From contig NZ_NVQC01000022.1 of assembly GCF_003044035.1 (NCBI RefSeq), forward strand, positions 30,001 to 62,000: 32,000 bases of DNA, given 5' to 3'. Source of the DNA: Candidatus Methylomirabilis limnetica. Lineage in GTDB: Bacteria; Methylomirabilota; Methylomirabilia; Methylomirabilales; Methylomirabilaceae. Every line of letters begins with the position of its first letter. Position 1 is the stretch's first letter. Position numbers and translations under genes: made by a program. Of this stretch, positions 1-32,000 are shown one piece after another. The notes under the pieces were generated by a model, which saw only the letters and a list, made by a program, of their open reading frames with translations, was not told the origin of the DNA and made no database searches.

Positions 1-1
1 A

Positions 2-958
2 TTAAGGCCAGAGGATGTCGTAACCGTCAAAGACTGGCCCGTCCTTGCAAACGAGGCGGTAGGTCCGACCTGCTTGGCTGGCAGACAGGTCTTGTTCGCC
101 ACCCTTCACCGGTACGACGCAGCCCATGCAGGCCCCGAAGCCGCAGGCCATGCTCGCTTCCATGGAGGCCTGATAGGGCAGCTCATATTTTTCGGCAATC
201 GTCGCAAGAGCCGCCAGCATGGGATGCGGGCCGCAGGCGTAAATCCCCCCAACCCCCCTTTTATAAAGGGGGGAACTGGCGGATTTGGGGTGCGAGGTGT
301 TGAGATACTGCTCCAGCAGTTCGGTCACCAACCCTTTCTGACCGGCGCTGCCATCTTCTGTGGCCACGTGAATCTTTGCGCCGACCCGCTTAAAATCGAC
401 GGTACACAGCAGATCAGCCTTAGATCTCCCGCCGAGAAAGACGGTCATCTTCGTTTCGCGTGATGCTCGGCGCGTGGCAAGACCCTCAGCAAGGGCGGCA
501 ATCGGAGGGACACCGATTCCGCCAGCAACCAGGAACACCTCCGTTGCGGAACGTGGAACCTCAAAGCCGTTCCCCAAGGGGCCGAGAGCCCGGAGGGACC
601 TACCTGGACGCATCGTCGCCAGGAGCGCCGTCCCGCGGCCACACACCTTGTACAAAATCTCTACCTCGCACCCCGGATCGGTGTCCGGGGCAGGCCCCGC
701 ACGCCAAATCCCCCCGTGCCCCTTAAATCCCCCCGTGCCCCCCTTTGATAAAGGGGGGTTGGGGGGGGTTTTTACACTTCGGATGCTCAAGGCTCGAGGC
801 AGCAGCGGATCCAGTCCATCTGTACATCCAAGCATGAGAAACTGGCCAGGGCGGAATCTGGCCAGGTATCGAGGGCCAACCAGACGCATCGAAAAGTACT
901 CCGGTGCGATCTGCCGATTGGACACCACTTCAACTTGGACCTCAGATGCCGTCGCCAT
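2..958 (-). CDS. pyrK: Dihydroorotate dehydrogenase (class 1B) electron-transfer subunit PyrK, carrying two in-frame repeat-derived inserts
   Basis: ORF 2..967 (-). Ferredoxin-reductase-type motifs are present: RALSI (RxxS FAD motif), CGRGT, LGPLGNGF, VAGGIGVPP, ACGPHPML. The C-terminal 2Fe-2S Cys cluster is CGFGACMGCV...CKDGPVF. ATG at 958 has GAGGGG about 8 nt upstream; GTG at 967 is the alternative start. It is the last visible gene of the minus-strand pyr operon. Confidence 0.9.
   Translation of the reverse strand: MATASEVQVEVVSNRQIAPEYFSMRLVGPRYLARFRPGQFLMLGCTDGLDPLLPRALSIRSVKTPPNPPLSKGGTGGFKGHGGIWRAGPAPDTDPGCEVEILYKVCGRGTALLATMRPGRSLRALGPLGNGFEVPRSATEVFLVAGGIGVPPIAALAEGLATRRASRETKMTVFLGGRSKADLLCTVDFKRVGAKIHVATEDGSAGQKGLVTELLEQYLNTSHPKSASSPLYKRGVGGIYACGPHPMLAALATIAEKYELPYQASMEASMACGFGACMGCVVPVKGGEQDLSASQAGRTYRLVCKDGPVFDGYDILWP
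241..286. repeat. C6/G6 palindromic repeat element, copy A (inverted, degenerate), inside the pyrK CDS
   Basis: AAATCCCCCCAACCCCCCTTTTATAAAGGGGGGAACTGGCGGATTT. It has the same architecture as copies at 706-773, 973-1020 and 6069-6114: AAATC6-3nt-C6-TTT, an AT-rich loop, then AAA-G6-...-ATTT. Confidence 0.8.
706..773. repeat. C6/G6 palindromic repeat element, copy B (with duplicated left arm), inside the pyrK CDS
   Basis: AAATCCCCCCGTGCCCC (706-722) is followed by TTAAATCCCCCCGTGCCCCCCTTTGATAAAGGGGGGTTGGGGGGGGTTTTT (723-773). It is near-identical to the intergenic copies C and D. Confidence 0.85.
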
Positions 959-972
959 TCCCCGCACCCCTC

Positions 973-1020
973 AAATCCCCCCGTGCCCCCCTTTACCAAA
1001 GGGGGGTTGGAGGGGGTTTT
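973..1020. repeat. C6/G6 palindromic repeat element, copy C, intercistronic between carB and pyrK
   Basis: AAATCCCCCCGTGCCCCCCTTTACCAAAGGGGGGTTGGAGGGGGTTTT. It fills most of the 968-1056 spacer between the carB stop and the pyrK start. Confidence 0.85.
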
Positions 1021-1056
1021 GCACTTCGCACATAGGGCAGCCACAAGGGACTGCCC

Positions 1057-4335
<3,279 letters not shown>

Positions 4336-4369
4336 AGCTGCAAGACTCCCGCTGATTGAACCTCACACG

Positions 4370-4564
4370 TCAAGCGACAGCGTACTCCACGGATTTAGGA
4401 TTCTGGACCCGCTTGGATGCGTTGAGGATTTCCATGCCCACAATGTTCCCGTCCTTGTCGTAGTCCAGAATTACCCCTGGTTTGTCCTGGTCACTCTCCT
4501 CAACCTGTGCGTCACTAAATTCGATTGTGAGTACATCCACTTCTTGGTCATATTTGACCTTCAT
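4370..4564 (-). CDS. DUF2283-family small protein (putative antitoxin-like partner)
   Basis: The reading MKVKYDQEVDVLTIEFSDAQVEESDQDKPGVILDYDKDGNIVGMEILNASKRV matches the DUF2283 pattern (YD.e.D.l.i......v......g.i.d.d..G.i.GiEil.as). GGAGGG precedes the ATG. The ATG at 4564 overlaps the upstream gene's TGA (ATGA overlap). The longer track ORF 4370..4660 has an implausible N-terminal extension. Confidence 0.75.
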   Translation of the reverse strand: MKVKYDQEVDVLTIEFSDAQVEESDQDKPGVILDYDKDGNIVGMEILNASKRVQNPKSVEYAVA

Positions 4565-4818
4565 GGCACCCTCCAGTACTTGCTGATCTTGCTTGTCCGG
4601 TACACGGTGACCACAACGGGGGGATCGACCGTTTCGTTGACCATCACCCGCAAGAGACAAGGCTTTCCCTCGATTTCTACCTGAGATTGATAGCAGGTAA
4701 CGTTGTCCACCTCAGGTACTTTCTGTTCCGGCCCTTGTAAAACCTGCTCCAAGAGCTTTCGCGAAATCTTACGTCTATCTAGTTCCTCATGCAGATGCTT
4801 AGAGTAGTGGAACCTCAC
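4561..4818 (-). CDS. DUF4258-family small protein (putative toxin-like partner)
   Basis: VRFHYSKHLHEELDRRKISRKLLEQVL... fits the DUF4258 N-terminal pattern (i.fs.HA...m..R.I....v..vl). GTG at 4818 has GAGGA about 9 nt upstream. The track start (TTG at 4842, TTGA overlap with the carA stop) is the alternative. Confidence 0.65.
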   Translation of the reverse strand: MRFHYSKHLHEELDRRKISRKLLEQVLQGPEQKVPEVDNVTCYQSQVEIEGKPCLLRVMVNETVDPPVVVTVYRTSKISKYWRVP

Positions 4819-4838
4819 CGTTCTGCATCCTCGATCAA

Positions 4839-6050
4839 TCAACCCTTCGCGCCCTCCCGGTTGCGCTTGCTCGCCATGAGGTCCACGAAGCGCTGAAAGA
4901 GGTAGCTGGCGTCATGGGGACCAGGGGAGGCTTCCGGGTGGTATTGCACCGAAAAGATCGGGAGGCGACGATGTCGCATCCCCTCGACGGTTTGGTCGTT
5001 GAGATTGATGTGGGTCAGCTCGATCTCTTTATCCGGGATCGAGGCGATGTCCAAGGCAAAGCCGTGATTCTGGGTGGTGATCTCCACCTTCCCGGTCGTC
5101 AGATCCTTGACAGGCTGGTTCCCGCCGTGATGACCGAACTTCAGTTTGTAGGTCCGTCCCCCGAGGGCGAGACCCAGGATCTGATGGCCCAAGCAGATGC
5201 CGAAGATCGGCGCGGCGCCAATCAGCTTTTGCACGTTGTCAATCAGATACGGCACGCCCTCCGGGTCGCCGGGGCCATTACTCACGAAGACCCCATCCGG
5301 GGCCAAACCCATGACCGTGGACGCAGGAGTATCCGGAGGAACCACCGTCACGTCGCACCCTGCCTCTACCAACCTCCGCAGGATATTCAACTTGATCCCG
5401 CAGTCGTAGGCCACCACACGGAAGGGTTTATGGGTTAGGGTAGAGGGGTTAGGGAACAGCGCGAGCTGATCTGCCAACTCGAAACTCGAAACTCGAAACT
5501 CGAAACTGCCTTCGTACCCCTTTCCCAATTGCCACGGTCCCTCGCGCCACGTGTAGGGCGAGGTACAGGCCACCTCTTTCACCAAATCGCGACCGATCAG
5601 GCCAGGCGAGGCCTTGGCCTTGGCAATCAGGCTATCTGGGTTCAGGTCTCTTGTTGAGATCACCCCTTCCATCGCCCCATGGTCCCTCAGATGCCTGGTG
5701 AGCGCCCTGGTATCGATCCCCTGAATTCCCACGACGCCCTGCTCTTTAAGGTAGCTGTCAAGGGTCCGAGTGCTGCGCCAATTGCTTGGGTAGGGGCTCG
5801 CCTCCTTCACAATGAACCCCTCCACGGCCGGCACTGTTGACTCGACGTCCTCAGGGTTGATGCCGTAGTTGCCGATCAGAGGATAGGTCATCACGACCAT
5901 CTGGCCCTTGTACGAGGGGTCGGTCAGGACCTCCTGGTATCCGGTCATGCTGGTGTTGAAGACCACCTCACCGACGGTCTCCCCTTCTGCGCCGAAGGAG
6001 ACACCCTCGAAGATGGCGCCATCGGCCAGCGTCAATAACGCCTGCTTCAT
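4839..6050 (-). CDS. carA: Carbamoyl-phosphate synthase small (glutaminase) subunit, with a repeat-derived linker insert
   Basis: 403-aa ORF. N-terminus [47 protein letters not shown]. Class-I GATase motifs are present: [10 protein letters not shown] (catalytic Cys) and [13 protein letters not shown]. Confidence 0.97.
5424..5510. repeat. Heptamer-tandem-repeat element inside the carA CDS
   Basis: On the plus strand: GGGTTTA TGGGTTAG GGTAGAG GGGTTAG GGAACAG, a 16-nt spacer, then (AACTCGA)x4 at 5476-5503 plus partial AACTGCC. On the coding strand this is (GTTTCGA)n ... CCCTAAC-type heptamers, translated as [24 protein letters not shown]. Confidence 0.85.
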
Positions 6051-6068
6051 AAGCGTCCCTTGTCCCCC

Positions 6069-6114
6069 AAATCCCCCCGTGCCCCCCTTTTAGAAAGGGG
6101 GGATGGGGAGATTT
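6069..6114. repeat. C6/G6 palindromic repeat element, copy D, intercistronic between pyrC and carA
   Basis: AAATCCCCCCGTGCCCCCCTTTTAGAAAGGGGGGATGGGGAGATTT, within the 6051-6138 spacer. Confidence 0.85.
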
Positions 6115-6138
6115 CGCATACCGTGCTTCGCACTCTCA

Positions 6139-7482
6139 TCACGCCTCCCAGACCACCTTGCCAGCGACAAGCGTCGCCACAGCCTGCCCCTTAAGCCGCC
6201 AGCCGTGGAAGGGGGTATTGCGGCTTTTCGACACAAAGGCGCCCGCGTCCACCTCCCACTCCCGAGTCGGATCAAAGATCGTCAGATCAGCGTCGGCGCC
6301 TTCGGCAATGCGTCCCTTTGGGAGCTTCAGGATGCGCGCGGGCTCGCTGGTGAACTTCCCCATCGCCTGCGAGAGTGTGAGTACTCCAGGATGCACCAGG
6401 GTTGTGATCGTCACGGCGAGTGCCGTCTCCAGACCGATCACCCCGAAGGGTGCCTGATCGAACTCCTGCTCTTTCTCCTGGACCGTGTGAGGGGCGTGAT
6501 CTGTCGCGATCACGTCGATGGTTCCGTCTCGCAGGCCCTCGATCAGGGCTTGCCGGTCGGCCTCGGACCGAAGCGGCGGATTCATCTTGGCGTGAGTACT
6601 GAAGCCACGGACCGCCTCCTCCGTGAGCGCCAGGTGATGCGGGGTCACCTCGCAGCTCACCCGGACCCCGCGGGCCTTGGCCTCGCGGATCAGACGTACC
6701 GATTCGGCTGCGCTCACGTGCGCAATGTGGAGTCTCGCGCCAGTCAGCTCCGCCAGGAGGATATCTCGCGCTACCATCACCGCCTCCGAGGCTGAGGGGA
6801 TGCCACGAAGCCCGAGATCGGTCGAGACGAACCCCTCATGGACCACGCCCCTGCCGCTCAGGTGCAGATCCTCACTATGCTGGATAACCGGCAGGTCAAA
6901 CATCGCCGCGTACTCCATGGCCCGCCGCATCAGTTCGGGGCTCATCACCGGCCGACCATCATCGGAGATAGCGACGCAGCCAGCCTCGAATAGCTCTCCG
7001 ATCTCGGCCAGCTCCTCCCCTTTCATCCCCTTCGTGATGGCGCCAACGGGGTACACCCGAACGACCCCCTCGCGCTTGGCCGCGTCAAGGATGAACTCGG
7101 TAACAGCGCGCGTGTCGTTTACCGGGTCGGTGTTCGGCATACAGCAAACCGCCGTAAAACCCCCCCGCGCCGCAGCCATCGTTCCGCTCGCAATGGTCTC
7201 TTTATCCTCACGTCCTGGCTGGCGCAGGTGGACATGCATGTCGATCAACCCCGGACAGACCACCAACCCTGTGGCATCCATCACCCGATCAATGGACTCT
7301 ACTCCTGCTGTCTGGGATCTCGAATTCTTTGATGTCTTCCCGTTTCCCCGGGTGTTAAGAGTGGGTTCTGCCGTGCTCCGGCCTAACCTTATAATCTTCC
7401 CGTCTTCTATGAGGAGATCCAGGATTTCATCGACCGCATTTGCAGGATCGATGACTCGACCACCCTTGATCAGAATCCGCAT
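6139..7482 (-). CDS. pyrC: Dihydroorotase
   Basis: 447-aa ORF. Amidohydrolase metal motifs are present: PGLIDMHVHLRQPG (HxH) and VIATDHAPH. Its position between pyrB and carA fits the operon. Confidence 0.95.
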   Translation of the reverse strand: MRILIKGGRVIDPANAVDEILDLLIEDGKIIRLGRSTAEPTLNTRGNGKTSKNSRSQTAGVESIDRVMDATGLVVCPGLIDMHVHLRQPGREDKETIASGTMAAARGGFTAVCCMPNTDPVNDTRAVTEFILDAAKREGVVRVYPVGAITKGMKGEELAEIGELFEAGCVAISDDGRPVMSPELMRRAMEYAAMFDLPVIQHSEDLHLSGRGVVHEGFVSTDLGLRGIPSASEAVMVARDILLAELTGARLHIAHVSAAESVRLIREAKARGVRVSCEVTPHHLALTEEAVRGFSTHAKMNPPLRSEADRQALIEGLRDGTIDVIATDHAPHTVQEKEQEFDQAPFGVIGLETALAVTITTLVHPGVLTLSQAMGKFTSEPARILKLPKGRIAEGADADLTIFDPTREWEVDAGAFVSKSRNTPFHGWRLKGQAVATLVAGKVVWEA

Positions 7483-17146: not shown

Positions 17147-17174
17147 ATTGTTGCGACTTACGATACTATGTATA
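17147..17174 (+). repeat. 28-nt repeat, copy 1 (promoter-like TTGTTG-N17-TATAAC), upstream of the HlyD/ABC operon
   Basis: ATTGTTGCGACTTACGATACTATGTATA matches 27651-27678 at 26 of 28 positions. Both copies directly follow a strong hairpin. Confidence 0.7.
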
Positions 17175-17199
17175 ACCATATCCGCACTGCAGGGGGTGT

Positions 17200-20370: not shown

Positions 20371-20424
20371 GCACAGGGCCTCTTTTCAAGGCACAGCAGG
20401 GCCTATTCACGTGGTAGAATGAAC

Positions 20425-20466
20425 GTAACTACTAAGGTGGATAGACCGAAGGCTGAAGGCTGTTAG
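20425..20466. repeat. Solo terminal inverted-repeat copy of the CTGAAGG-heptamer MITE
   Basis: GTAACTACTAAGGTGGATAGACCGAAGGCTGAAGGCTGTTAG aligns with the left TIR of the element at 23216-23376 (GTAACTGCTCAGGTAGATAGACTGAAGGCTGAAGGCTTTTAG). Confidence 0.7.
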
Positions 20467-20517
20467 TAATGCTGGCCCTCGCCGCGTCCGCTAACAAAGT
20501 AACGATAGGTGAAAACC

Positions 20518-23215: not shown

Positions 23216-23376
23216 GTAACTGCTCAGGTAGATAGACTGAAGGCTGAAGGCTTTTAGGGGTAAGCCGCGTGATTATTTAAAACCCCGAGAAGGTCTTGAG
23301 GGGCTCGGTTCGTACCCTCTGATATAATTTAGAGCCTTCAGCCTTCAGTCTTCAGCCTAAACACCTGAGTAGTTAC
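23216..23376. mobile_element. 161-bp MITE-like element with about 40-bp TIRs that contain inverted heptamer tandem repeats
   Basis: Left end: GTAACTGCTCAGGTAGATAGA(CTGAAGG)x2CT. Right end: AG(CCTTCAG)x2 TCTTCAG CCTAAACACCTGAGTAGTTAC. CGAATG is present on both flanks (23210-23215 and 23379-23384). It is non-coding and lies between iaaA and the AI-2E gene. Confidence 0.8.
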
Positions 23377-23403
23377 GCCGAATGAACGAAGAGGGTGGAG
23401 AGA

Positions 23404-24642: not shown

Positions 24643-24667
24643 CTTCGGAAATTGTGCGCTACCGCGG

Positions 24668-25069
24668 TTAATAGCCGCCCCTGCGACCGCCGCCACCGCC
24701 GCCGCCACCGCCGCCGCTACCGCCGCCGCCGCGATATCCGCCACCGCCGCCGCTGCTGCTACCACCACCACTGCGATATCCGCCACCACCGCCACCACCG
24801 CCACCACTTCGGCGAGGAGCCTGTTCTTTTGCCTCATTGACCGTCAGCGCCCGACCACCAACATCTCGCCCATTCAAGGCCTGGATAGCGGCCTCAGCGT
24901 CGCTCGGACTCTCCATCTCAACGAAGGCAAAGCCCCGGGGTCGTCCAGTATCACGATCTGTAATGATCTTGACATCGGTGACCTTACGATCACCCTCTTC
25001 AAAGAGGGTGCGGAGCGCAGATGCATCCGTATCAAACGGGAGATTACCAACATACACTCGTGTTCCCAT
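24668..25069 (-). CDS. RRM-type RNA-binding protein with glycine/arginine-rich C-terminal tail
   Basis: RNP-2 VYVGNL and RNP-1 RGFAFVEM are present. The tail reads RRSGGGGGGGGGYRSGGGSSSGGGGGYRGGGGSGGGGGGGGGGRRGGY. ATG 25069 is preceded by GGAAGGAG. The track ORF start 25165 adds an unsupported N-terminal extension. Confidence 0.92.
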   Translation of the reverse strand: MGTRVYVGNLPFDTDASALRTLFEEGDRKVTDVKIITDRDTGRPRGFAFVEMESPSDAEAAIQALNGRDVGGRALTVNEAKEQAPRRSGGGGGGGGGYRSGGGSSSGGGGGYRGGGGSGGGGGGGGGGRRGGY

Positions 25070-27620: not shown

Positions 27621-27658
27621 ACTACCCCGCGGCAAGCCGCGTGGTAGTTCATTGTTGC
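27618..27658 (+). terminator. Terminator-like hairpin after the repeat-protein gene
   Basis: TGAACTACCCCGCGGC aa GCCGCGTGGTAGTTCA has 15 of 16 positions paired. It is followed by TTGTTG. It starts within the stop codon. Confidence 0.5.
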
Positions 27659-27678
27659 GACTTACGACGCTATGTATA
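27651..27678 (+). repeat. 28-nt repeat, copy 2 (TTGTTG-N17-TATAGC), upstream of prk
   Basis: ATTGTTGCGACTTACGACGCTATGTATA matches 17147-17174 at 26 of 28 positions. Confidence 0.7.
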
Positions 27679-27732
27679 GCAATGAGTAGCGCGCCATTTG
27701 TCCGCTTAATGCACAGCCCCTATCAAAAGATA

Positions 27733-29592: not shown

Positions 29593-32000
29593 GTGCATAG
29601 CTTTCGGCAAGTGATAGTGGATGAGATTCTCCCTGCAGTGAGTAAGCCGTCCCGGTACATCGGGATGGAATGGAACGCCATCAAGAAGGACCCCGCCAAC
29701 GCTAAAGTCAAAGTCGCGTTAGCCTTTCCCGATACGTACGAAATCGGCATGTCCCATCTGGGCCTGAAGATCCTGTACCAGATCCTGAACCGGCGGCCGG
29801 AGTTTATGGCGGAGCGGGCCTATGCGCCGTGGGTGGATGCGGAGCGGCTGCTGCGGCAGCAGAGGGTTCCACTCTGCACCATTGAATCCGGCTACAGCCT
29901 GGCGGATTTCGACCTGATTGGCTTCACGCTGCAGTACGAACTCTCCTACACGACGCTCCTGAACATGCTGGACCTGGCCGGTATCCCGCTCCAGAGCGAG
30001 CAGCGCCGCGAAGGGGATCCATTCGTGATCGCGGGTGGTCCTGTCGCCTTCAACCCGGAGCCGATCGCCGACTTTATCGACCTATTCCTGCTCGGCGATG
30101 CGGAGGAAGCGATTATAGAGATCTGCGAAGCGGTCATGCAGTGGAAAGCAACGGGGGGGCCGCGTGAAGAGCTCCTCGAGGCATGGGCCAAGATCGAAGG
30201 CTGCTACGTGCCCGCGCTCCACCAGGGCGAGACGATTCGCAAGCGGACAGCGATCCACCTCGATGGGATCGACTATGGCGCGTTTCTGGTCCCATTCATG
30301 GAGATCGTTCACGACCGCGTCAGTATCGAGGTGATGCGTGGATGTACGCAGGGGTGCCGCTTCTGTCAAGCCGGCTACATCTACCGACCGCTTCGAGAGC
30401 GATCCGCCGAGGAGATCATGCAGATGACCCTGCAGGCAAGACGAGGGACGGGGTATGAAGAGGTCTCGCTAGGCTCGTTGAGCATCGCCGATCTGACCGA
30501 TCTCCCTCATCTTATCCACCCGCTCATGGAGGATCTCTTGCCGGAGAAGATCTCGCTGTCCCTCCCCTCCCTGCGGGTTGAAGCCCTGAACCGTTTTCCG
30601 CAGGTGGCCGAGGAGATCGGACGGGTTCGAAAGACCGGCTTCACCATCGCGCCGGAGGCCGGAAGCCAGCGGCTTAGAAAGGTGATCAATAAGGAGGGGT
30701 TCGACGAGGAACAGATCTTCATGGCCGTGAGGAATGCCGCCAAATCCGGCTGGGAGTCGGTGAAATTCTACTTTATGATTGGGCTCCCGACCGAGACGCA
30801 GACGGACCTGGACGAGATGATTCGCATCACGCGGGAATCGGCGCGGATCGCGCGGGCGGAGTCGGCTCGAGGCTTTGGGCTGACAGTCAGTACCTCCTCG
30901 TTCGTCCCGAAGCCCCACACCCCATTCCAGTGGTACGCACAGGAGCCGATGGATATCCTCAAGGAAAAGCAGGATTTCCTGAAGCGAAAGTTACGAGAGG
31001 CGAAAGTGTCGTACAAGTGGCATCATGTCCAGTCCTCCTTCCTGGAGGCGGTCTTCTCCCTGGGTGACCGCTCACTTGGTCGAGCCATCCTTCGTGGCTA
31101 TGAACTCGGGTGTCGGCTTGACGGCTGGACTGAACATCTGAGGTTCGACCTATGGATGCAGGCCTTCGACGAGACAGGGATCGATCCGAAGGCGATCGCT
31201 AATCGGCCGCGCAATCTGGATGAACCGCTACCGTGGGATCATATCGACATCGGCGTCAACAAGTCGTTCCTACAGCGAGAGTACAAGAAGGCGTTAGAGG
31301 TCCGCGGGACGGCCGATTGTCACACGGCTCCATGCACGGCCTGTGGCGAGATCTGCCAGCCCAACTGGCCAACCTGGGCGGAGAAGGTCGGAATGAAAGT
31401 TTCGGGTCCAGAGTTTCGAGTTTCGAGTTCGACGTGCGTTGTTCCTGGCGCTGAACCCGAAATTCAAAACTCAAAACTCAAAACTTTATATGAAGCGCCC
31501 GTTCAGCGCATCCGGTTTATTTTTCAGAAGATCGGGGTGCTGCGGTATCTTTCGCACCTGGAGTTAATGAAGGCGTTGGGCCGGGCGGTGCGTCGGGCTC
31601 GGATAGCCGTAGCCTACTCCCAGGGGTATAACCCCCAACCAAAACTCGCGTGTGCCATGGCGCTTCCAGTGGGGGTCGAGGGGTGGCAGGAATTGGCGGA
31701 CATCGAGTTGAGCGCGGCCATAGCCCCAGAGGAGTTGGTGGCACGAGTCAATCGGTCCCTGGCACCGGAGCTACACCTGCTCCGAGCCTGGGAGGTTCCA
31801 TTGGCGTCGCCCTCGCTTACACCGTTGGTGCGGGAGCTCAACTATCGAGTCTCATTGCCGTTGGATAGCTCCTCCCAGGAGATCCGAGTGAAGCTCAGCT
31901 CCCAGGCGCTCTGCAATGAGTGGCTCGATCGGCCAAGCATCCCGGTCCGCGTCAGGCGAAAGGATAGGCTCGTGGATGTCGATGTCCGGCCGCAGATCCT
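29593..32000 (+). CDS. B12-binding-domain radical SAM protein (TIGR03960-like) fused to a DUF2344/TIGR03936-like domain; 3' end beyond the window
   Basis: This ORF is not in the supplied ORF track. I translated frame 1 by hand and found it open from the TGA at 29590 to the window end. GTG 29593 has AAGGAG 8 nt upstream. The sequence reads ...LPAVSKPSRYIGMEWNAIKKD..., with radical-SAM cluster motif RGCTQGCRFCQAG, then ...PKPHTPFQW... The DUF2344-like part is RIRFIFQKIGVLRYLSHLELMKALGRAVRRARIAVAYSQGYNPQPK. Confidence 0.85.
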   Translation, partial: MHSFRQVIVDEILPAVSKPSRYIGMEWNAIKKDPANAKVKVALAFPDTYEIGMSHLGLKILYQILNRRPEFMAERAYAPWVDAERLLRQQRVPLCTIESGYSLADFDLIGFTLQYELSYTTLLNMLDLAGIPLQSEQRREGDPFVIAGGPVAFNPEPIADFIDLFLLGDAEEAIIEICEAVMQWKATGGPREELLEAWAKIEGCYVPALHQGETIRKRTAIHLDGIDYGAFLVPFMEIVHDRVSIEVMRGCTQGCRFCQAGYIYRPLRERSAEEIMQMTLQARRGTGYEEVSLGSLSIADLTDLPHLIHPLMEDLLPEKISLSLPSLRVEALNRFPQVAEEIGRVRKTGFTIAPEAGSQRLRKVINKEGFDEEQIFMAVRNAAKSGWESVKFYFMIGLPTETQTDLDEMIRITRESARIARAESARGFGLTVSTSSFVPKPHTPFQWYAQEPMDILKEKQDFLKRKLREAKVSYKWHHVQSSFLEAVFSLGDRSLGRAILRGYELGCRLDGWTEHLRFDLWMQAFDETGIDPKAIANRPRNLDEPLPWDHIDIGVNKSFLQREYKKALEVRGTADCHTAPCTACGEICQPNWPTWAEKVGMKVSGPEFRVSSSTCVVPGAEPEIQNSKLKTLYEAPVQRIRFIFQKIGVLRYLSHLELMKALGRAVRRARIAVAYSQGYNPQPKLACAMALPVGVEGWQELADIELSAAIAPEELVARVNRSLAPELHLLRAWEVPLASPSLTPLVRELNYRVSLPLDSSSQEIRVKLSSQALCNEWLDRPSIPVRVRRKDRLVDVDVRPQI
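31396..31487. repeat. Heptamer-tandem-repeat hairpin element inside the radical-SAM CDS (domain linker)
   Basis: (GAGTTTC)x2 GAGTTCG at 31411-31431, a 32-nt spacer, then (TCAAAAC)x3 at 31464-31484. The reverse complement of the second array is GTTTTGA-type, so the two arrays form imperfect inverted repeats. It is translated as SGPEFRVSSSTCVVPGAEPEIQNSKLKTL. Confidence 0.8.

Follow-up and report, generated by a model that had tools for sequence, protein, structure and literature searches.

The pyrK gene of Candidatus Methylomirabilis limnetica probably carries a very small, non-autonomous mobile palindromic element that is tolerated in frame as a loop of the encoded protein. We analyzed a 32,000-nt stretch of this genome (hereafter the window), in which pyrK, encoding the electron-transfer subunit of dihydroorotate dehydrogenase B, occupies positions 2..958 of the minus strand as an intact ORF of 318 amino acids starting at ATG. 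The gene lies in a pyrR-pyrB-pyrC-carA-carB-pyrK-...-pyrD cluster and hosts two copies of the element, insert 1 (725..771) and insert 2 (241..286). The original prediction had placed at 706-773, inside the pyrK frame, the same repeat as at 973-1020 and 6069-6114, translated without stop or frameshift. Both statements were borne out: the three sites share a core, with 79-89% identity over 61 nt, and the minus-strand ORF 2..958 stays open across the element, reading ...SIRSVKTPPNPPLSKGGTGGFKGHGGIWRAGPAPDTDPGCEVEILYK.

Insert 1 is a full two-tier palindrome of 47 nt (AAAT-C6-GTG-C6TTT-GAT-AAAG6-TTG-G8TTT), laid out at 725-771 as AAATCCCCCC-GTG-CCCCCCTTT-GAT-AAAGGGGGG-TTG-GGGGGGGGTTT and translated from the minus strand as (K)TPPNPPLSKGGTGGF. 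Next to it, at 706..724, part of the left arm is repeated in tandem over 19 nt (AAATCCCCCCGTGCCCCTT, translated KGHGGI(W)), a duplicate also found in the orthologue L125 (P0003). The segment 706-773 is 1.4 element copies; its minus-strand reading, in frame, is KTPPNPPLSKGGTGGFKGHGGIW, and its predicted fold has an energy of -41.1 kcal/mol (z = -2.7). We also asked whether the 706-724 duplicate had been copied from sequence flanking the intergenic copy; that flank reads CCCCGCACCCC and not CCCCGTGCCCC, and the duplicate is better explained by duplication of the arm within the element itself. A second small palindrome, CCCCGGATCGGTGTCCGGGG at 671..690, interrupts the remnants of a (GGTGCGA)n heptamer array (about 664-674 and 692-704). 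It had been assigned to the extra segment of PyrK, in agreement with its absence from the closest element-free orthologues: at this site L001 and L003 show an alignment gap and (GGTGCGA)x3 instead of the hairpin.

The core of the element, CCCCCCTTTnnnAAAGGGGGG, is present in four exact copies in the 32-kb window (253-273, 738-758, 986-1006 and 6082-6102) and was never found in 100 dinucleotide shuffles of the window. The 61-nt block 712-772 shares 89% identity with 960-1020 and 79% with 6056-6116, and is inverted-complementary to 241-297. Two copies of the same element as insert 1 are intergenic, one (973..1019) between the stop codon of carB (1057) and the start codon of pyrK (958), the other (6069..6114) between pyrC (6139-7482) and carA (4839-6050). 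A different, GTAG-headed palindrome lies beside the element at 1025-1053. Insert 2 points the opposite way and is an older copy that has partly decayed; it is translated KSASSPLYKRGVGGI, its outer stem has lost its pairing, and the heptamer motif GGGGTGCGAGGTG comes directly after it, at 287-299. A fifth copy is located at the 3' end of an aminotransferase-IV gene, with GGTGCGA units on its flank. Three of the five copies are therefore in coding sequence (two in pyrK, one in the aminotransferase-IV gene). All five lie within 8.6 kb in the pyr gene cluster, and none was found in the remaining ~33 kb of the ~42 kb of M. limnetica DNA that were read (the window and contig L127). This clustering at pyr genes could reflect local copying or local function rather than random transposition, two alternatives weighed below.

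A native PyrK loop that is palindromic by chance, a pseudogene or an assembly error would each account for an odd sequence at this position, and in several assemblies contigs break beside the intergenic copy (L131 and L132 begin 51 nt before pyrK; assembly breaks are common at repeats). We nevertheless regard this group of explanations as extremely improbable. No copy is expected by chance, the element is also intergenic and present in other phyla, and orthologues without it exist. The window protein is 100% identical to PyrK of Ca. Methylomirabilis limnetica (P0001), and at least 10 contigs encode exactly this 318-aa protein. They come from no fewer than 6 independent runs (ENA ERZ4201064 and the Logan assemblies of SRR6684602, ERR3856785, ERR3856787, ERR3856789 and SRR24858484), so that independent assemblies speak against an artefact. 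Neither the reading frame nor the catalytic residues are damaged. The PyrK alignment is invariant at R55 and S58 of the RxxS motif, at the GxGT motif and at each of the four Fe-S cysteines, and both Pfam domains (PF10418 and PF00175) are matched. No second PyrK from M. limnetica was found among the homologues listed. None of the three refuting outcomes named with the original prediction (a conserved peptide of equal length in orthologues lacking the palindrome, a pseudogene, an assembly artefact) was obtained.

To measure the extra segment, we used Lactococcus lactis PyrK (5ksw_B, 1ep3_B) as the structural reference, and not the B. subtilis protein. The window protein matched 5ksw_B with an E-value of 9.6e-27, and the top Foldseek matches of its model were 5ksw_B and 1ep1_B, which have the PyrK fold. 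The 38 residues counted in the original prediction between RALSI and EVEIL were recovered exactly; query residues 61->101 align to residues 59->69 of the L. lactis chain, leaving ~30 extra residues, and a second gap of 13 residues corresponds to insert 2. Insert 1 starts 3 residues past the Ser of the RxxS motif. In the AlphaFold2 model of PyrK, strands 55-63 and 97-104 are connected by coil (residues 64-96), and the pLDDT falls below 50 over residues 72-91 (41-47 in the insert region). The model thus fits the expected surface loop, and we infer from its low confidence that insert 1 probably forms a disordered, exposed loop.

Comparison with orthologues gave the presence/absence patterns. Among about 100 NC10 PyrK proteins the insert-1 segment varies from 10 to 45 residues with unrelated content, and no peptide of the same length is conserved; the palindrome is missing from the DNA of the close relatives L001 and L003. 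Insert 1 is absent from the orthologous DNA of L001, L003, L004 and L126. The best presence/absence pair is L133 (P0020), which has AAATCCCCCCACCCCCCCTTTTCAAAAGGGGGGAACGGGGGGATTT, against L134 (P0048), which has a pure (AGTGCGA)x5 array; the two differ by a net +33 nt and are 94.8% identical over the downstream 600 nt. The carB-pyrK intergenic copy is present in the window, L125 and L126 and absent from L001, L003 and L004, and the aminotransferase-IV copy is shared with L003 and missing from L001 and L004. At the site of insert 2, a diverged copy occurs in L001 and L003, and L004 has (ACACCCG)x3 without the element; between compensating indels, the middle of the insert is read in two frames, as SSPLYKRGVGG in the window and as PHPPFTKGGYWG in L001. 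The same insertion point, orientation and frame are found in P0001-3, P0012 and P0020, which reflects either a single old insertion that was later lost or replaced several times, or recurrent insertion at a hot spot.

We compared five sites with element-free orthologous sequence (insert 1, insert 2, the carB-pyrK spacer, the aminotransferase-pyrD junction, and L133 versus L134) and found no target-site duplication at any of them. At the compared sites the element takes the place of about two heptamer units. AT(T/C)T lies at the boundaries of two empty sites: L004 has ATTT at the place of insert 2, and L001 and L003 have ATCT at the place of insert 1. Microhomology of 1-3 nt with the heptamer units leaves the element edges imprecise, so that the target motif is drawn from four or five site comparisons.

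These observations bear on a rather unlikely alternative, in which the copies spread by gene conversion or by template switching during replication or repair between shared heptamer arrays, with no transposase specific to the element. The in-frame outcome would be the same and only the means of spread would differ. Such local copying would agree with five M. limnetica copies within 8.6 kb, with a GGGTGCG(A/G)G-like unit after every one of them, and with the lack of both a target-site duplication and a nearby transposase. It would also suit the loop of insert 1, which is GGT in L125, like that of the intergenic copy 250 nt away, and ATC in the window, three adjacent changes that look like conversion. 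However, it leaves unexplained why the same 33/46-nt sequence with a sharp AAAT end recurs beside quite dissimilar heptamer units in phages and in at least 15 phyla, and why copies exist that adjoin no array at all.

Under the preferred reading, a mobile element tolerated in frame, insert 1 would have landed in an existing 7-nt microsatellite, ((A/G)GTGCGA)n, that would encode the PyrK hairpin loop between the RxxS FAD-motif strand and the next strand. The full 46-47-nt form would fold as a two-tier hairpin. The conserved positions of the element hold no fixed stop codon in any of the six frames, so copies with a net change that is a multiple of three leave the gene open; if the variable positions held random bases, a frame would be open with a probability of 0.61-0.87. 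Since the 46-nt element and the 7-nt unit are each 1 modulo 3, gain or loss of heptamers by slippage can restore the frame. The outcome would be a Pro/Gly-rich peptide, PPxPPLxKGGxGGF, tolerated as a disordered surface loop. This peptide is probably expressed; it would be neutral, the insert having no function of its own in PyrK.

A use of the hairpins by the pyr operon, with the pyrK copies kept for mRNA stabilisation, ribosome pausing or transcription attenuation, appears improbable to us. E. coli REP hairpins stabilise upstream mRNA, the hairpins predicted for the element copies are very stable (-34 to -41 kcal/mol), and five copies sit in a single pyrimidine cluster, two of them exactly between cistrons. 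Yet copies are missing in close relatives with the same operon, the same element occurs in unrelated genes elsewhere, and insert 2, with its outer-stem pairing lost and its frame switching between lineages, follows a pattern of drift. In addition, a search of window positions 1-7000 against Rfam at permissive thresholds returned chance-level matches only, below every Rfam threshold, with nothing for the element and no PyrR-binding element reported.

To follow the element beyond M. limnetica, we defined its unit as AAAT-C6-n(2-3)-C6TTT-nnn-AAAG6, to which the full 46-47-nt form adds a mirror arm, n(2-3)-G6-ATTT. A 24-base pattern matched at least 120 genome DNA stretches from at least 15 phyla, with cultured isolates among the hosts, and the element was also found in real phages. 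The AAAT end is conserved at 84-99% per position and positions -5 to -8 are random; as the search pattern left this end out, the matches across many phyla are unlikely to be unrelated. The sample comprised 19 full palindromes, 70 lone halves and 59 inverted pairs (28 + 31), the pairs being counted among 223 half units. The arms (AAATCCCCCC...GGGGGGATTT) are inverted repeats, and L...R pairs span spacers of 5-448 nt. Eight of 152 copies adjoin a tandem array with a 7-nt unit (background 0.65%), and tandem periods of 5, 6, 8 and 9 beside copies showed no enrichment.

Of the 152 copies, 49 lie in a frame that stays open for 50 codons or more to either side. Pfam domains confirmed the in-gene status of 15 of the 20 such ORFs tested, and at least 11% of the 152 copies elsewhere sit in verified genes. 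Domains flank or span the element in LeuRS, RecJ, Lhr, Tex, CbiG-CobJ and two radical SAM proteins, as well as in SBP_bac_5, RlpA, IOR, FGE, PALP and Cu-oxidase_4; in GH3/NagZ and a sensor kinase, the element is C-terminal to the domains of a recognised protein, and a Mur ligase is a probable sixteenth in-gene host. RecJ with the element has 27 extra residues compared with 5f54_A. Taken at its widest, the proposal is that of a previously undescribed, stop-free family of 33/46-nt hairpins in many phyla and also in phages, which would use heptamers as landing pads, be moved by a widely shared enzyme and seed Pro/Gly loops in PyrK, LeuRS, RecJ, Tex, Lhr and other proteins across at least 15 phyla. 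We put this forward tentatively, as a possibility somewhat short of an even chance.

We then looked for a mobilising enzyme. Among the 119 ORFs nearest to elements at 120 genome loci, no transposase family occurred more than once, only ordinary families being recovered, and no Y1 transposase was prominent; a single-copy RAYT would escape such a sample. Element halves lying 0.4-5 kb from each other bracket 10 genes; no transposase stood out among these, which encode an amidotransferase, a GGDEF protein, a phage terminase, a capsid protein, Mu gp27 or proteins with no match. At one further locus (L102), a perfect inverted pair of elements 6 kb apart encloses several ordinary-sized ORFs. No parent insertion sequence with the same ends was found among the 205 loci sampled. 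Because no mobilising enzyme was identified, the word mobile refers here to presence/absence patterns only. We infer that the element may be moved in trans by an enzyme reading the hairpin in single-stranded DNA. The sharp AAAT end, the lack of a duplication and AT(T/C)T at two empty-site boundaries make a Y1/HUH transposase of the RAYT or IS200/IS605 kind our best guess, and the same features hint at an IS200/IS605-derived (PATE-like) element.

The original prediction likened the insert to the Rickettsia palindromic elements (RPEs), a comparison that holds for behaviour, an in-frame coding palindrome, and fails for size, sequence and host; it is an analogy and not a membership. RPEs measure ~100-150 bp, form about ten families and are limited to Rickettsia (Ogata et al. 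2000, 2002, via PMC10969869). They are multi-copy palindromes, both intergenic and in frame in unrelated housekeeping genes, and are translated into an extra peptide thought to be surface-located, with the function of the host protein kept (PMC10969869), all of which resembles the present case. In contrast, the element described here is 33-47 nt long, built on GC runs, spread over many phyla and phages and tied to 7-nt microsatellites, and appears unrelated in sequence to RPEs.

The element also resembles the REP/REPIN sequences mobilised by RAYT, in being a short (20-40 nt), GC-rich imperfect palindrome with a conserved end tetranucleotide that occurs singly or in inverted pairs, lacks a target-site duplication and has no adjoining transposase at most copies. 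It differs from them in its conserved end (AAAT, and GTAG in REP), in its many intragenic copies, whereas REPs are extragenic by definition, and in being near-invariant across phyla, whereas REPs are usually species-specific in sequence. The small dispersed repeats (SDRs) of Nostocaceae are reportedly tiny hairpin-forming mobile repeats of 21-27 nt that occur within tandem heptamer arrays and inside other repeats and that insert without leaving the usual transposon hallmarks, and their sequence is said to be unlike that of the element here. To our knowledge, in-frame colonisation of essential genes is not a main feature of SDRs. They have been reported only from a few heterocyst-forming cyanobacteria (PMC5861425). 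MITEs such as ERIC, the Coxiella QMITE and the Anabaena MITEs are likewise non-autonomous, have inverted-repeat ends and occasionally form in-frame fusions (PMC10969869, PMC5896051, PMC3184786). Terminal inverted repeats are indeed present in the element; unlike it, MITEs are typically 100-400 bp long, with target-site duplications and a recognisable parent insertion sequence, of which none was found here. That this repeat family had been thought undescribed agrees with our searches of Rfam and of the literature, in which no description of the element was found, the core sequences retrieving only papers on the HIV polypurine tract and unrelated ones.

Palindromes in coding DNA have until now been regarded as peculiar to Rickettsia. 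A 2024 review considers their frequency in that genus unusual, and the same elsewhere is only speculated upon (PMC10969869). RPE-like behaviour is now seen for a much smaller element, in free-living bacteria of many phyla and in central enzymes such as LeuRS, RecJ and PyrK. In practice, such inserts break assemblies (some contigs end at the element) and distort alignments, domain calls and gene-length statistics. If our interpretation is true, it would reveal a general way for selfish DNA to place disordered loops in conserved proteins, and would account for a class of Pro/Gly-rich "PPFxKGG" segments and probably for many spurious short ORFs in metagenome annotation. It would also link two unexplained genome features, 7-nt microsatellites and tiny hairpin repeats, and raise the question of which enzyme recognises a sequence that is near-invariant across phyla.

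The core of the C6/G6 element, CCCCCCTTTnnnAAAGGGGGG, is found at exactly four places in the 32-kb window (253-273, 738-758, 986-1006 and 6082-6102) and not once in 100 dinucleotide-preserving shuffles of it. Aligning the four copies gave the unit AAAT-CCCCCC-n(2-3)-CCCCCCTTT-nnn-AAAGGGGGG-n(2-3)-GGGGGG-ATTT, a two-tier hairpin of 9 + 10 base pairs with a small internal loop and predicted folding energies of -34 to -41 kcal/mol. The original prediction, that a palindromic repeat at 706-773 is translated in the pyrK frame, held: the minus strand reads SIR-SVKTPPNPPLSKGGTGGFKGHGGIW-RAGPAPDTDPGC-EVEILYK through this segment (insert 1) with no stops and no frameshifts, and the segment comprises a full element copy (725-771) and a 19-nt duplicate of its left arm (706-724). 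The 38-residue spacing, the extra hairpin at 671-690 and all other details of that reading were correct. Using contig L127, which adds 10 kb of M. limnetica DNA past the window's left edge, we located a fifth copy (L127 13438-13458) inside the 3' end of an aminotransferase-IV gene, bordered on either side by GGTGCGA units. It is common to L003 and missing in L001 and L004 (three related loci), and the product is 332 aa long in M. limnetica versus 294 aa in L001. The five copies span 8.6 kb at the pyr cluster, three of them in coding sequence, and no further copies were found in the remaining ~33 kb of M. limnetica DNA read.

The host gene is intact. pyrK is an ORF at 2..958 on the minus strand whose 318-aa product is 100% identical to Candidatus Methylomirabilis limnetica PyrK, in the gene order pyrR-pyrB-pyrC-carA-carB-pyrK-(pabB-like)-(aminotransferase IV)-pyrD. 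Both PyrK domains were matched in a Pfam search, and aligning 45 homologues showed no variation at R55, S58, the GxGT motif or the four Fe-S cysteines. Compared with Lactococcus lactis PyrK (5ksw_B, 1ep3_B), query residues 61-101 align with chain residues 59-69, leaving about 30 additional residues directly after the RxxS strand, and a second gap of 13 residues coincides with the element copy at 241-286 (insert 2). In an AlphaFold2 model (mean pLDDT 74.9; top structural matches 5ksw_B and 1ep1_B, both PyrK), residues 64-96 form a coil joining strands 55-63 and 97-104, with pLDDT below 50 at residues 72-91; the insert loop is presumably neutral and placed at the surface. An assembly error can be excluded because at least 10 contigs encode the identical protein, and these derive from at least 6 separate sequencing runs and assemblers.

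We then compared orthologous loci at the DNA level. L001 and L003, whose PyrK is ~80% identical, have neither insert 1 nor the copy between carB and pyrK (973-1019), and carry (GGTGCGA)x3 at the insert-1 site. L125 (P0003) has insert 1, arm duplicate included, and L126 (P0005) has the intergenic copy, with arrays of other heptamers at the insert-1 site. Across ~100 NC10 PyrK proteins this segment runs from 10 to 45 residues, refuting a conserved peptide of fixed length, and four types of content occur: a "ground state", SAKCEVRSAKCE, itself translated from (AGTGCGA)n; the C6/G6 element (P0001-3, P0012, P0020); a different GC palindrome (PPPFPPPRRGEGEGGG); and long stretches derived from heptamers. 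The cleanest pair, L133 and L134 (94.8% identity across 600 nt downstream), differs by the 46-nt element versus (AGTGCGA)x5, a net gain of 33 nt with no target-site duplication. Insert 2 is older than insert 1. In many lineages it is still there but decayed; it is missing in L004, which has (ACACCCG)x3 at that site, and its middle is read in different frames in the window and in L001 (P0007), as SSPLYKRGVGG versus PHPPFTKGGYWG, with compensating indels at both bounds. Gain or loss of the element between related genomes is thus well supported.

Several other repeats were seen in and around these genes. P0083 has two tandem element copies at the insert-2 site. Another GC-rich palindrome-like insert, translated PPPFPPPRRGEGEGGG or PSLPLPPPRGRDGWGG, occupies both PyrK loops in other lineages (the insert-1 site of P0004, P0038, P0039, P0046 and P0086; near insert 2 in P0003 and P0011), and the C-terminal tails of many orthologues, for example NWSIPSIRSTDQTDQ, also look repeat-derived. 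Within carA, an (AACTCGA)x4 array (5476-5507, minus strand) encodes a 10-residue peptide in frame; it has a reverse-complement relative 26 kb away (31398-31445), and related "QFPVSSFKFRV" stretches stand at the insert-1 site of P0005 and P0011. Directly after the carB stop codon lies a GTAG-headed REP-like palindrome (1025-1053, minus strand, GTAGGGGCAGTCCCTTGTGGCTGCCCTA), distinct from the C6/G6 element and kept at the same spot in L001, L003 and L004; it also occurs at the L001 aminotransferase-pyrD junction (about 4900-4930) and therefore represents a second family of dispersed repeats.

A 24-base pattern, run against one genome per species, matched at least 120 DNA stretches. The cultured isolates among the matches listed include Chromatium okenii, Thiorhodococcus, Thiothrix, two Lysobacter, Luteimonas (complete genome) and Geomesophilobacter; metagenome-assembled genomes bear the labels Nitrospirota, Nitrospinota, Desulfobacterota and other "delta" groups, Myxococcota, Methylomirabilota, Planctomycetota, Chloroflexota, Aminicenantes, Bacteroidota, Deinococcota, Omnitrophota, Schekmanbacteria, Binatia, Bacillota, and Alpha-, Beta- and Gammaproteobacteria. 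The four bases preceding the arm were not part of the search pattern and are AAAT in 84-99% of the 153 matches listed, while the next four bases outward are random, which marks the matches as homologous and the end of the element as sharp. Among the matches listed, 19 are full palindromes and 70 are lone halves; the pairs number 28 in L...R order and 31 in R...L order, the latter tightly spaced (7-30 nt). In IMG/VR, 85 stretches carry the element. One 23.6-kb contig (IMGVR_UViG_3300035670_001258; L213, L136, L151) has at least 10 intergenic copies among genes that include a large terminase and major capsid protein E, so real phages carry it; tandem half-unit runs and modules of hairpin + GACGGTGGCGGCGAAGCCGCCAAGCTTTAG were also seen there.

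Among 152 copies, 49 sit in reading frames that stay open for 50 codons or more to either side. We tested 20 of the longest such ORFs and confirmed 15 as in-gene, 13 of them with Pfam domains flanking the element on both sides or spanning it: LeuRS (within the editing domain), CbiG-CobJ (two copies), RecJ, Lhr helicase, Tex, two radical SAM enzymes, a family-5 solute-binding protein, RlpA, an indolepyruvate oxidoreductase subunit, an FGE-sulfatase domain protein, a PLP enzyme and a Cu-oxidase_4 protein. The other two are a GH3 hydrolase and a hybrid sensor kinase, recognised proteins within which the element falls C-terminal to the Pfam domains; a Mur ligase probably makes a sixteenth. RecJ has 27 more residues than 5f54_A and LeuRS 7 more than 1h3n_A. 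The insert peptides are of the types NPPxPPFxKGGxGG(F/I) and KSPxxPLxQRG, matching the consensus prediction.

None of the six frames has a stop codon at the conserved element positions, and with random bases at the variable positions the probability of an open frame is 0.61-0.87. Heptamer tandem arrays occur within 40 nt of 8 of the 152 copies (background, 0.65% of positions) and adjoin the AAAT/ATTT end; arrays of period 5, 6, 8 or 9 near these copies were not enriched. Every site in the pyrK region has a heptamer array in those orthologues that are free both of the element and of other repeats. Because 46 and 7 both equal 1 modulo 3, we infer that array slippage can repair the frame after an insertion. 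No target-site duplication was found at the five sites compared, two of whose empty forms are bordered by AT(T/C)T (ATTT in L004 at the insert-2 site, ATCT in L001/L003 at the insert-1 site), and transposases are not enriched near element copies. Taken together, this suggests a non-autonomous element mobilised in trans, most plausibly by an enzyme that would recognise single-stranded-DNA hairpins, as REP/RAYT and IS200/IS605 systems do. For spread inside the pyr cluster, gene conversion acting locally is an alternative to be taken seriously: all five M. limnetica copies cluster at pyr genes, and the insert-1 loop of L125 equals that of the intergenic copy 250 nt away.

Elsewhere in the window, two small ORFs between carA and carB (4370-4842, minus strand), called DUF4258 (85 aa) and DUF2283 (64 aa) in L127, look like a toxin-antitoxin-like pair wedged in the pyrimidine operon. 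A 40-nt repeat with (GAAGGCT)x2 (20424-20470, 23216-23257 and 23324-23377; direct and inverted, ~2.8 kb apart) could represent the termini of a further small mobile element. A GCC/ACC triplet-repeat run with 12-nt periodicity (24662-24820) would give a Gly-rich low-complexity stretch on the minus strand, and a 33-nt AT-rich sequence, ATTGTTGCGACTTACGAYRCTATGTATARC, occurs at 17147-17179 and 27651-27683 (88% identity, 10.5 kb apart).

Among known systems, Rickettsia palindromic elements (RPEs) show the same behaviour, which supports the proposed likeness of a dispersed palindrome tolerated in frame by an intact gene; the C6/G6 element is not itself an RPE, being unlike them in size, sequence and host. 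REPs/REPINs are alike in form, but their GTAG and "extragenic" hallmarks do not hold for this element, and neither the target-site duplication nor, among 205 loci, the parent insertion sequence that a MITE should have was found. The small dispersed repeats of Nostocaceae are likewise tiny and embedded in heptamer arrays; they are shorter, unrelated in sequence and not known outside one lineage. We found no description of the C6/G6 element in Rfam or the literature searched, and the many-phyla family as such stands a fair chance of being undescribed. The inserted PyrK peptide is probably expressed. It is well supported that insert 1 belongs to a dispersed palindromic element, that an intact pyrK tolerates it in frame, and that the element family does this widely, pyrK being one example.
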